From an uncultured Rhodobacterales bacterium (GTDB taxonomy: Bacteria > Pseudomonadota > Alphaproteobacteria > Rhodobacterales > Rhodobacteraceae): a stretch of DNA of 64,000 nucleotides. Below, in pieces: positions 27,652-32,331 of this stretch. A program made the position numbers and the translations under genes. Position 1 is the stretch's first letter. Each line of letters starts with the position of its first letter. Below the pieces are notes generated by a model that did no database searches, was not told where the DNA came from, and was given only the letters and a program-made list of their open reading frames with translations. The stretch is from positions 21,318 through 85,317 of the forward strand of contig CAZWDS010000001.1 of NCBI GenBank assembly GCA_964632495.1, written 5' to 3'.

Positions 27652-30600
27652 ATGAATACGACTGCTTTTTTTGACGCAACAAACGTTGATACACCCGCTG
27701 GTTTGACCACGGCTGTGGGGATGGGGTCCATCAGTGGCATACCCAGTTCTGGCACCGGACTGATGGGCGCAGCATTTGTTCCCGGCACATCCATTTGGAA
27801 CACCGCCAAGGCTGCTGAAGCCGCGGCTGGAACGCCTGACGCAACATTCGTGGCATCCGAAGTTATGTATGCATCGCGACAAAGCGAAACGACGGTAGCC
27901 GAGTTTATCGGCAACGATGCCGCCAGCCTTCAAGGCAACGGCAATCTGGAAATGGGGCCATCGGCGCTGACGCTTTCGGGCTTCATCTACATCCCGCCCG
28001 GCGTCCACGAGATCGAAATCGTTTCGGATGATGGGTTTGAGCTGCAAATCGGCGGCGTCGATTTTTCAGAATTCACCGGGGGACGCGGCCCCGACGGAAC
28101 CGCACGCGTCGCAGACTTTGAAGGCGGGTTGTACCAGATTGACATGCTGTATTTCGATGGTGGCGGCGGTATGGCTCTTTCTCTCCAGATCGACGGTTTG
28201 CCTGTGAATCAAAGTGCGCTTTACCAAAGCACCGACGATTTCATGAACCCACCGGCCGATGTGCTTTTGGTTCCTGTCGACGAATACCATCCCTCTCTTT
28301 TCCTTGAAGAAAGCCTTGATGTCGCCGTCGATACAACCACGACAGACGCACGCGATGTCATCACAGGCCTTGGCGCTGATGACACTATCGATGGCCAGGG
28401 CGGCGATGATGAACTTATGGGCGGCTATGGCGATGACATCCTTATGGGCGGTGAAGGCGACGACGTTTTGGACGGCGGTTTTGGCTCGGACGTTCTGAAC
28501 GGAGGAGACGGCAACGACCTTCTCATCGCACGCTCGGACGCAGGCGAACAACGGATCGGTCAGCTTGCGATAGATCAATCCACGCGTCCGGATCCGGATA
28601 ATGAAGTTGACGACGATCTGCAAAAACTCTCGGCCTTTGCGAACGAAGCCCTTGTGGGCGATGACGTTCTGATTGGGGGCGCGGGCAACGATACCTTTCT
28701 GATCTCACCTCAAATCGATGCAAAACTGGACATTATCGAACAACACGTCCGCGCCGATGGCACGATCAATTGGGCAGGTGTTGCGGGCGAAAACGATGAA
28801 CTTCACGACCACTGGGTTGATAGCTCTGGCATCGACATAATCGCCGATTACAATGCCGATGAAGATCAGATTGCCATCATCGGCCATACGGCTGTGCCCT
28901 TCGTGACCTACGCCGATGTCACGGGCGACGGCGTCGAGGAATCCATCATCACCGTGATCTCGGTTCAGCACGGCAACGGCGGTGCCCATGATCGCGATCT
29001 GATTGGTCAGGTCATCGTCCACGGCGACCGGGTCGAAGTCGAAGACATCCAGACCGACGATAACGTCACTTATGGTGTCGTCGAGGGCTACGGCGACATC
29101 GCGCAAGCGCTTGCTCCGGTTGGTGAAGAAAAGATCACGACAATCGATGGCGTTGATTACAAAGGCTATGACACACGCGAGCCTATGCAGATGATGGACG
29201 GCATGGACGCGGGCGAACACGCGGGCCATGGACCGGGCACCAATGTGCTGGGCGAAGTCACCGGAAACCCTTACGACGCGTTCGACAACGACAACTTCAG
29301 CGAAGACATGCTGGCCGCCGGCGCGGGAGAAACCAACGACTATGTAGAAACGCGATCTCCCTTCGATCAGTTGGAAGAAGTCGATGTCGCAGGCTCAAAT
29401 ATCTCGGGCAACAACAATGGGAACAACTTATCTCAAGAAGACACCGAAACACCCGAAGGTCTTCCTGGCGCGCTAGGTTTCTGGAGCCTTGGGAACGGTA
29501 TCGATGGCGCTTATGCGGACTTGCGCGATGATGGCGGCGCGGACGTTAAGTCCTACACGCTCTATGAAAGTCAGGCCCTGTTGAACACCGATGCCTCAAC
29601 CGATGGTCCCGATGGAACACCGAATGGCGCGATGTACTTCAATGGCGAGGACAGCTTTGCTTTCCTAGAGCACGATAGCGAAACAGCCATAACCCAAGGC
29701 ACCATCGCCATGTGGGTACGCCCCGACGACATTGGCGAAACCTCCATGTTCGTGACGAAAGATCAATCGGGAGCAGGAGACGGCAGTCATTTCCGTCTTG
29801 GCCATACCGATAACGGCGGCTTGTTCCTGCGGATGGCCGACCCTTACAAGACGAACCACGCTTGGGAAACCGGCCCACGTCTGACCGAAGGTGAATGGAC
29901 CCATCTGGCCGTCTCTTTCACTGACGACGGTATCACTGTTTACCTTGATGGCGATCCAGTTCCGAATGGCGCTTGGTCCAAAGTTGAAGGCGACATCGCC
30001 ACACCCGGTCAACACGGCTCAGCTACACTGCTTCAGAACGAAGAGCCTTGGGTCTTTGGCGCAGATCAATCACGTACCGAGCTAAACGAAACAGCTCAGG
30101 AATTCGCAGTCGATGACGACAAGCTCCAAAACGAGTTTGAAGGTGCGATTGCCGACTTTGGTGTCTGGGGCGGCTTTACGGCCGATGACGCCTTGACCCG
30201 CGCCGAAATCGACAACTTGATCGACAATGGGCCGGGTGCCGCGCTGACCAATCCATCAGGGCAACAGCCGATGGTTCTTGCTGACGACATGATTGAAGGC
30301 ATGGGTGGTCGCGACACGATCCACGGCGAAGGCGGTGACGATACTTTAGATGGCGGTGCTGGAAATGATAACATTCACGGCGGATACGGCGACGATCATC
30401 TGATTGGCGACGTCGGGAACGACACGTTGGACGGCGGACGCGGCAATGACCTTTTGGAAGGTGGCGATGGCAATGACACGTTAATCAGCCGCTCCGACGC
30501 GGGCGAACAGCGCGCCGGACAACTGGTTCTGGACGATCCTTCGCGCCCGGAAGGCGGCTCCATTGATCCCGAGTATCTGAAACTTGTAGATTGGATCGAT

Positions 30601-32331: not shown

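Follow-up and report, generated by a model that had tools for sequence, protein, structure and literature searches.

A predicted PA14-RTX-LamG exoprotein of an uncultured Rhodobacterales bacterium and its apparently vertically inherited family

Bacteria of the roseobacter group dominate algal blooms and particle surfaces, and almost none of their RTX-like exoproteins has a known function. RTX-like proteins in which basic residues are unusually scarce dominate the exoproteomes of roseobacters (PMC3933643). The beta-rolls formed by RTX repeats need extracellular levels of Ca2+ to fold, and they are a hallmark of the cargo of type I secretion systems (T1SS) (PMC3034196, PMC6891781). The pump PrsDE has NodO among its several Ca2+-binding substrates, and apxIVA is found without adjacent secretion genes (PMC3034196). 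In RTX adhesins, PA14 domains act as lectins; the one from M. primoryensis, MpPA14, binds diatom glycans (PMC8092209). In this work we analyzed a stretch of 64,000 nucleotides from an uncultured Rhodobacterales bacterium (GCA_964632495.1, contig CAZWDS010000001.1), hereafter the window, and in it a single gene (27652..32331, + strand) that encodes an RTX protein of 1559 residues. From these analyses we conclude that the gene was vertically inherited and belongs to a common, so far uncharacterised family of predicted RTX exoproteins in the Rhodobacterales; its product carries a module, here called X, and an acidic, helix-bearing C-terminus that were both previously undescribed.

The protein and its family

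The coding sequence runs from ATG to TGA and specifies a protein of 166 kDa with a pI of about 4, 347 acidic residues (D/E) against 51 basic ones (K/R), and no cysteine, as computed from the translation. An earlier note, made from the letters of the window, had read it as one open reading frame (ORF), and this is borne out by a Shine-Dalgarno sequence that is invariant in seven leaders and by more than 100 full-length homologues in the protein database, with identities of 52-78%. About 400 matching places were found in 185,579 species genomes, the closest being L041, with 80% identity (numbers preceded by L designate genomic loci of the family). The exact sequence of the window protein had no entry on record. 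Among the best 80 genome matches, every record with a taxon below phylum belongs to the Rhodobacterales, except one labelled Oceanobacillus; the remaining records are titled only 'Pseudomonadota' or 'Alphaproteobacteria'. The family is widespread in Silicimonas, Boseongicola and related genera, and it is also present in Litoreibacter, Actibacterium, Aliishimia and Limibaculum. In the source records its members go by no other names than 'hypothetical', 'LamG-like jellyroll fold domain-containing protein' or 'Ca2+-binding RTX toxin-like protein'; a literature search turned up no publication on them, and no member has been characterised.

The protein consists of an N-terminal PA14-like domain, a tandemly duplicated RTX-X-LamG unit and an acidic tail. 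The duplication is evident from self-alignment, in which aa about 233-835 match aa about 886-1370 with a score of 776. No signal peptide is present at the N-terminus, as the earlier note had stated; within the first 40 residues, no 19-residue window exceeds a Kyte-Doolittle value of 0.94. The putative PA14 lectin domain (27754..28221, + strand; aa 35-190) was delimited by searching the sequences of the PDB with phmmer, where aa 35-186 matched solved PA14 lectins of RTX adhesins: the 'RTX protein' 36gk (6.5e-12), MpPA14 (5j6y and others, 1.1e-9) and Marinobacter Lap (6m8m, 1.6e-8). In MpPA14 the DcisD motif consists of Asp110-Asp111 and coordinates the Ca2+ that binds the sugar (PMC8092209). 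These residues align with D126-D127 of the window protein, so the motif is present by sequence; the segment around it, SDDGF (S125-D126-D127-G128-F129), is the counterpart of ADDGY in MpPA14 and is at least 90% conserved in the family.

The two RTX blocks and the two LamG modules that the earlier note had recognized were recovered by profile searches. The Pfam model HemolysinCabind matched in five stretches (E=3e-28, 97.8 bits, cutoff 23), and a regular expression identified 12 clear nonapeptides, in aa 257-292 (plus one at 342) and in aa 892-945 (plus one at 994). Combining both searches with an AlphaFold2 (AF2) model, RTX block 1 (28357..28533, + strand; aa 236-294) has about 5-6 nonapeptide turns and was modelled as a regular beta-roll, with a predicted local distance difference test (pLDDT) of 87-97; block 2 (30289..30489, + strand; aa 880-946), delimited by Pfam, the regular expression and the model of the second unit, has about 6-7. 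Laminin_G_3 matched in two stretches (E=4.9e-29, 101.9 bits, cutoff 27.6). Within LamG/ConA-like module 1 (29452..30261, + strand; aa 601-870) the best of them covers aa 678-774, and the phmmer matches of this module were 4qvs (2.6e-9) and 5hon, the accessory domain of the AbnA arabinanase (0.029). It is preceded by a poorly conserved linker (29188..29451, + strand; aa 513-600; mean conservation 0.50), and the pLDDT of the AF2 model falls below 50 from about aa 510 on. Module 2 (31297..31851, + strand; aa 1216-1400) was also matched by Laminin_G_2 (aa 1267-1374, 27.4 bits, cutoff 22.9). A Foldseek search with it retrieved the carbohydrate-binding module CBM40 of R. gnavus and C. perfringens sialidases, pentraxin, the N-subdomain of the botulinum neurotoxin (BoNT) Hc and the agrin LamG domain, with E values of 2e-8 to 5e-7, TM-scores (TMt) of 0.67-0.76 and identities of 15-19%; for CBM40, pentraxin and the BoNT subdomain the values were about 2e-8 and 0.70-0.76. 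By phmmer it gave a weak match (E 0.012) to a levanase entry (4b1l/4azz), the matched part of which we take to be the CBM66 module. All these relatives of the two LamG modules, by sequence or by fold, are non-catalytic accessory or binding modules. The model of the second unit (RTX2-X2-LamG2) reached a pLDDT of 85 and a predicted TM-score (pTM) of 0.85, which predicts a single rigid multi-domain body composed of the three parts.

The earlier note was right about the PA14, RTX and LamG parts of this architecture and overlooked two others, namely a module of about 220 residues, X, that in both units separates the RTX block from the LamG domain, and the atypical C-terminus. X copy 1 (28534..29187, + strand; aa 295-512) starts with one extra RTX turn (GGAGNDTFL), followed by a beta-rich cap; its invariant residues include H365, H385-D-H387-W-x-D390, G411-H-T413 and G443-G-A-H446. 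Copy 2 (30490..31167, + strand; aa 947-1172) has H1037-D-H1039-W-V-D1042, G1064-H-T1066 and G1101-G-A-H1104-D1105. The motifs HDHWxD, GHT, GGAHD and GYDxR are invariant in both paralogous copies and in 40 species, and X is the most conserved part of the protein: the proportion of invariant columns is 28% in X1 and 26% in X2, 12% in LamG and 0% in the tail. No match to X was obtained in Pfam or NCBIfam, or among PDB sequences, either with the single sequence or with a profile (profile E<=10). The AF2 model of RTX1 plus X1 (mean pLDDT 82) retrieved by Foldseek, among the best 50 of 101 matches, only proteins with an RTX beta-roll and cap, at E of about 1e-4 and a TM-score of about 0.3; these were serralysins, family I.3 lipases, block V of CyaA and the R-modules of AlgE. 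A profile of X searched against 1.84 billion representative proteins found only 364 clusters, 295 of them at E<=1e-10. The proteins that bear X have one to seven copies of it, and in a sample of ten, RTX repeats were present in nine and LamG in seven. From the number of clusters, the range of copies and the accompanying domains, X seems to be a discrete, rare and reused module tied to RTX scaffolds, and it may represent a conserved domain of RTX proteins not defined before. Self-processing at an Asp-Pro bond, of the type of FrpC and ApxIVA, was also considered. D314-P315 is conserved in X1; no FrpC-type self-processing structure appears among the best 50 of the 101 Foldseek matches, and since the X profile has no PDB sequence match at E<=10 this candidate was not supported. 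The structure of a self-processing module is presumably deposited in the PDB.

Beyond LamG2 the chain continues with a poly-acidic low-complexity tract (31852..32103, + strand; aa 1401-1484) that is about 60% D/E and includes a run of 17 E; its length and sequence are hypervariable, different in each homologue. The last 75 residues (32104..32328, + strand) match no Pfam family and comprise two helix motifs, an acidic stretch and a hydrophobic end (...EEEEVMMI). The first motif, GISAIFSKIINALLSIFGLGG, is a hydrophobic or amphipathic helix (aa 1486-1505) with a Kyte-Doolittle maximum of 1.71 and is the sole hydrophobic segment of the whole protein; the second is EEIETTLTEVEDLLSDL (...EVEDLLSDL...). 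The tail motifs, with the helix consensus G-[IVF]-G-A-I-F-[SA]-[KR]-I-x-x-I-x-x-S-I-F-G-x-G-G, are conserved in 41 family ORFs, and a hidden Markov model of the tail, searched against all ORFs of 90 loci and the window (about 2 Mb of flanks), found these 41 and nothing else. We regard this region as a putative non-cleaved type I secretion signal; if so, it may widen what counts as one. Three types of C-terminus occur in the family. The window protein and the members nearest to it end in the acidic tail, type (a); more distant members have a third RTX block and a classical RTX end (...YDADGxG...DDFxFV), type (b). Type (c) has neither the acidic tail nor the RTX terminus; its C-terminal region of about 280 aa has extra domains, with a weak match to the H-type lectin family PF09458 (E=2.6e-4, below the cutoff), and was seen in L058, L061, L066, L068, L073, L081, L082 and L049.

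Some side observations concern individual sequences of the family. The poly-D/E tract is coded by simple GAN-rich repeats and is likely to be prone to slippage; the homologue P0074 ends in a Gly/Ala/Cys/Arg-rich repeat (GAACRGRACRG...) in place of the acidic tract, which on one reading would be a frameshift through this repeat DNA. In a Boseongicola genome (GCA_012263305.1, L089:7254-11645) the orthologue is called as an ORF of 238 aa, presumably the PA14 part, directly upstream of a remainder of 1214 aa; a frameshift or a split gene is indicated. The 54%-identical member L057 (WNWL01000004.1) lies on a 657-kb contig of a record whose title, 'Oceanobacillus sp. HTM 045', names a Firmicute; the assembly is probably mislabelled or contaminated. 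Two bins contain two members each on separate contigs, P01_G01_bin.56 (L034, L078) and P01_B01_bin.64 (L039, L045), and hence paralogues exist.

Synteny, leader and neighbouring genes

According to the earlier note the gene is an autonomous unit inserted between unrelated housekeeping operons. The comparison with relatives speaks against an insertion. The GC content of the gene is 0.53-0.56, matching that of its flanks, and synteny is kept among relatives with protein identities of 66-80%. In a Silicimonas metagenome-assembled genome (MAG; L001) with a 72%-identical orthologue, the order is ilvD, the gene with the carboxymuconolactone decarboxylase (CMD) domain, the RTX gene and the tungstate operon. 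A tblastn comparison placed CMD immediately upstream of the gene in 13 further loci; ilvD occurred on that side in 15, and the tungstate genes on the downstream side in nine. A horizontal-transfer island was ruled out by the GC content and the synteny. The comparison of the same flanks that the earlier note had proposed, looking for presence or absence of the RTX gene, gave the opposite picture: the RTX gene is kept and the differing element is the malonate block, which is absent at the same position in L001 and therefore is a variable insertion at the locus.

The Pfam scan agrees with the neighbours listed by the earlier note. On the 5' side is the CMD/AhpD-like gene (26637-27254, - strand), and between it and ilvD lie the malonate genes (22861-26444), which encode an AMP-binding malonyl-CoA synthetase-like protein, malonyl-CoA decarboxylase and a GntR/FCD regulator. 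The 3' neighbour is an operon of the tungstate type (32382-35463, - strand) with genes for a regulator, a periplasmic binding protein, an ATP-binding cassette (ABC) protein and a permease.

The leader and the terminator described earlier are also present. The 5' leader or promoter region (27255..27651, + strand) is 397 bp long, and the alignment of seven syntenic leaders revealed the conserved blocks CTGTTTCGC, CGAAAAAGTGAAACAGTG, GGAAACAATG and GCCCTTTT..GCCACA, the last of which is invariant in the seven relatives; this conservation too is at odds with an inserted unit. A motif resembling GAAACA(G/A)TG occurs three times, one copy being inverted as CTGTTTC, and a GC-rich inverted repeat (CGCGCC...GGCGCG) lies directly 5' of the Shine-Dalgarno sequence GGGAGAG (27638..27644, + strand), which is located 7 nt 5' of the ATG. 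Given that this sequence is invariant in the relatives' leaders and that the alignments of homologues begin at residue 1-2, the ATG at 27652 was taken as the start. The leader matched no Rfam family; a scan with the sigma-70 consensus gave no match within it, with overall counts at chance level, and RNAalifold predicted a weak, unconvincing structure for the 60 nt preceding the ATG. The conserved blocks could be the binding site of a regulator or a promoter that is not of the sigma-70 type. At the other end, an intrinsic terminator (32352-32379) with a 12-bp stem, seven GC pairs and a T-run is common to the RTX gene and to the convergent regulator gene of the tungstate operon, which ends at 32382; the whole element was delimited as 32352..32386.

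The rest of the window contains a flagellar cluster and housekeeping genes. Past the tungstate operon, an ORF of 617 aa (35533-37386, - strand) has no Pfam match at E<=0.1 and no tblastn counterpart in 86 loci; it overlaps by 4 bases the stop of a GT2 glycosyltransferase gene (37383-38339), which suggests translational coupling of the two. Only four relatives (L041, L076, L032 and L074) have the GT2 gene in the neighbourhood of the RTX gene. A functional link of the RTX gene to the flagellar cluster or to this pair was ruled out, given that the 617-aa ORF lies beside no homologue and GT2 is present in four loci. In the flagellar cluster, between a gene with an SLT domain and motA, there is an ORF of 762 aa (6686-8974, - strand) for which Pfam gave only a spurious TPR match.

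Export route and proposed function

We favour, with a little more confidence than doubt, the reading that the protein is exported by a T1SS and folded by Ca2+ into a multivalent lectin or adhesin for glycans of algae or particles; the general idea of a Ca2+-dependent adhesin or ligand-binding exoprotein had been put forward in the earlier note, and in it both the export and the binding are what we infer. The gene would be monocistronic, with its own leader and terminator, in a Silicimonas-like marine Rhodobacterales bacterium. The very acidic, cysteine-free chain would remain unfolded in the low-Ca2+ cytosol, and its uncleaved C-terminal residues, about 75, would be recognized by a pump of the PrtD/AprE/TolC type encoded elsewhere in the genome, through which the chain would pass with its C-terminus first. 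In the presence of seawater Ca2+ the two RTX beta-rolls and their X caps would fold, each forming a rigid unit with its LamG jelly-roll, and the folded protein would display three carbohydrate-binding-type modules: PA14, with an intact DcisD site for Ca2+ and sugar, and two modules similar to LamG and CBM40. From these three modules follows the idea of a multivalent Ca2+-dependent lectin or adhesin, which would connect glycans of algae or particles to the cell or to its exopolymer. Judging from the lack of an N-terminal retention module and of an extender, release of the protein or a loose association with the surface is more likely than anchoring in the manner of LapA or MpIBP. With three lectin-type modules on Ca2+-dependent scaffolds, the family is a concrete candidate for the recognition of algal or particle glycans.

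Several observations weigh against this reading. The Pfam PA14 model (PF07691) did not match the protein even at E<=1, although it is recorded for many full-length homologues, with some faint matches; the PA14-like call of the earlier note therefore stands on the matches to solved PA14 lectins, because of which we kept it. The residues that contact the sugar in MpPA14 (Ser130, Gln156 and Asp159) align with Gly here; the replacement of the three suggests that the ligand of this domain is probably different from that of MpPA14. X is conserved above the lectin domains, and the core function may lie outside them. The terminus, in contrast to that of more distant homologues, is not the classical RTX secretion domain, and LamG2 and an acidic tract of about 85 aa are interposed between the last RTX block and the end; in all, about 610 aa (X2, LamG2 and the acidic tract) separate RTX block 2 from the end of the protein. 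The helix at aa 1486-1505 has a hydrophobicity typical of transmembrane segments, which leaves room for other topologies. Finally, neither an ABC protein, nor a membrane fusion protein (MFP) nor TolC of a T1SS was found in the 64-kb window, by Pfam scans of the larger ORFs or by tblastn with intact PrtD and AprE, in agreement with the earlier note, which had considered the 5 kb on either side.

The absence of an adjacent exporter had been presented as remarkable; the family as a whole suggests that it is not. We counted pumps beside about 80 family loci, searching for the adaptor within 10 kb of each, and a type I pump adjoins the gene at only one of them (L003/L004, 54% identical, with a type (b) C-terminus). 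There (L003:5996-9490, GCA_012103375.1) a PrtD-family ABC gene and an AprE-type MFP gene are directly upstream of the family member, and the nearest database relatives of the ABC protein are named 'type I secretion system permease/ATPase'. The adaptor is split into three ORFs (7753-8535, 8756-9067 and 9278-9484), and either the gene is decaying or the assembly contains errors. At the other loci no adaptor homologue was found within 10 kb, even at E<=1e-3. In Boseongicola (CP046179) an intact PrtD and AprE pair is located at 1.75 Mb amid unrelated metabolic genes and has no substrate gene as a neighbour. A second assembly, nearly identical and equal in size, has a type (a) member at about 2.16 Mb, some 400 kb from the position of the pump, so that pump and cargo are both 'orphans' in this organism. 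Since the pump adjoins so few loci, the unlinked state is normal for the family, and PrsDE with NodO, as well as ApxIVA, provides a precedent (PMC3034196). What looked like the status of an inserted orphan is the ordinary state of a vertically inherited gene. Conversely, the lack of a T1SS in the window and the atypical, acidic C-terminus with its hydrophobic end could mean that the protein is not exported, or leaves by another route, for instance with the Glu-rich C-terminus as a type IV or other signal. We consider this very unlikely: RTX beta-rolls depend on extracellular Ca2+ and characterize T1SS cargo (PMC3034196, PMC6891781), a T1SS adjoins the family member at L003, and no genes of type IV or type VI secretion systems were found among the Pfam-scanned ORFs of the window.

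The conservation of X bears on a different explanation, namely that the protein is a secreted carbohydrate-active or other metal-dependent enzyme in which X is the catalytic or metal-binding core and PA14 and LamG are appended CBMs. Modules like PA14 and LamG are found as appended CBMs in many glycoside hydrolases and lyases, and the modules that come closest to LamG1 and LamG2, by structure or by sequence, are accessory parts of sialidases, arabinanase and levanase. X1 and X2 exceed LamG in invariant columns more than twofold (26-28% against 12%), they share invariant His, Asp, Glu, Asn, Trp, Arg and Tyr residues across the 40 species, and invariant histidines are atypical as Ca2+ ligands; the reuse of X in one to seven copies, with RTX repeats in nine and LamG in seven of the ten proteins sampled, would also fit. 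Against an enzyme, the model of X retrieved no enzyme fold among the best 50 of 101 Foldseek matches but only RTX beta-roll and cap proteins, X has no sequence match in Pfam, NCBIfam or the PDB, and its motif layout (GGxGxDxF...D.I.DY...D.I.I.G) resembles ordinary RTX C-terminal caps; we therefore regard this explanation as rather unlikely. A bolder version, which we hold to be unlikely, takes X as a new metal-binding or catalytic domain grafted on the RTX beta-roll and the acidic tract, helix and hydrophobic end as a new class of T1SS signal, and makes the protein a lectin-targeted enzyme or a metal-dependent binder acting on algal glycans and not a plain adhesin. If it were true, the new signal class would have replaced the classical RTX C-terminal domain across a whole clade of marine Rhodobacterales. 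The hydrophobic helix, whose consensus is kept in the 41 family ORFs, would fit a cell-anchored surface adhesin, held by this helix in the outer membrane or the T1SS duct, or by lectins that bind the lipopolysaccharide or exopolysaccharide of the cell itself like the rhizobial Rap proteins; PA14 lectins are indeed known from surface-retained RTX adhesins (PMC8092209, PMC6650083). Such anchoring seems improbable to us, given that Pfam and NCBIfam revealed no N-terminal retention module or bacterial immunoglobulin-like (BIg-like) extender repeats, that strongly acidic sequence lies on either side of the helix, with another 50 residues after it, an arrangement that differs from known sorting signals, and that more distant homologues have a standard RTX C-terminus instead of the helix. 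As to an RTX toxin that forms pores in eukaryotic or bacterial cells or is cytotoxic to them, its lectins would be receptor-binding domains as in the Hc of clostridial neurotoxins, and the Foldseek matches of LamG2 do include the Hc N-subdomain of botulinum and tetanus toxins. The NCBIfam models RTX_toxin and EhxA matched as well, but below threshold (RTX_toxin with 72 bits against a cutoff of 1000) and over the nonapeptide repeats only. With no hydrophobic N-terminal pore-forming region in the Kyte-Doolittle profile, no catalytic or toxin domain in Pfam, and no acyltransferase among the Pfam-scanned ORFs around the gene, where no search aimed at rtxC was made, a toxin is extremely unlikely.

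Comparison with known systems

The adhesins MpIBP of M. primoryensis (MpPA14, 5j6y), Marinobacter Lap (6m8m) and FrhA of Vibrio cholerae combine, like the window protein, a PA14 domain with RTX repeats; further points in common are a PA14 domain detectable by sequence (E 1e-8 to 1e-9), the conserved DcisD motif, the lack of a signal peptide and a marine origin. The layout is otherwise different. Adhesins of this type measure 340 kDa to 1.5 MDa. A retention module at their N-terminus is joined by tens of BIg-like extender repeats, and the ligand-binding domains lie close to the C-terminus, where one RTX block and the signal conclude the chain. In the window protein PA14 is at the extreme N-terminus, the opposite end from that in the LapA/MpIBP type, and the RTX blocks are internal; apart from PA14, which starts at about aa 35, no N-terminal domain was found with Pfam or NCBIfam, nor a retention module of the LapA/MpIBP type, which comes with a LapG-type cleavage site, and there was no Pfam match to BIg or cadherin-like extender repeats, the only internal repeat being the twofold RTX-X-LamG unit.

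With respect to gene arrangement, the nearest parallels are the PrsDE substrates such as NodO, and ApxIVA, Ca2+-binding RTX exoproteins whose genes are away from the pump; PrsDE in particular is one alphaproteobacterial pump that serves several dispersed cargo genes (PMC3034196). The domain content of these proteins is unrelated, since none has PA14, LamG or X. For LamG2, the likeness to CBM40, pentraxins, the Hc N-subdomain of clostridial neurotoxins and agrin LamG is one of fold, the ConA-like jelly-roll, at 15-19% identity, and the window protein has no attached sialidase or toxin domain. RTX1 plus X1 shares with block V of CyaA, serralysins, family I.3 lipases and the AlgE R-modules a beta-roll followed by a capping beta structure; at a TM-score of about 0.3, X adds to this some 150 residues with invariant His-rich motifs that those proteins lack.

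The comparison closest in taxonomy is with PaxA of Ruegeria pomeroyi and ZP_02147451 of Phaeobacter DSM 17395, both detected in exoproteomes (PMC3933643, PMC2953401). Their bacteria belong to the order of the source organism, and the two proteins have RTX repeats and extremely few basic residues. The likeness of ZP_02147451, a protein of 533 aa with a serralysin-C-like region, lies in the RTX repeats, the extent that was compared; the low content of basic residues is common to the window protein and the secreted RTX proteins of roseobacters.

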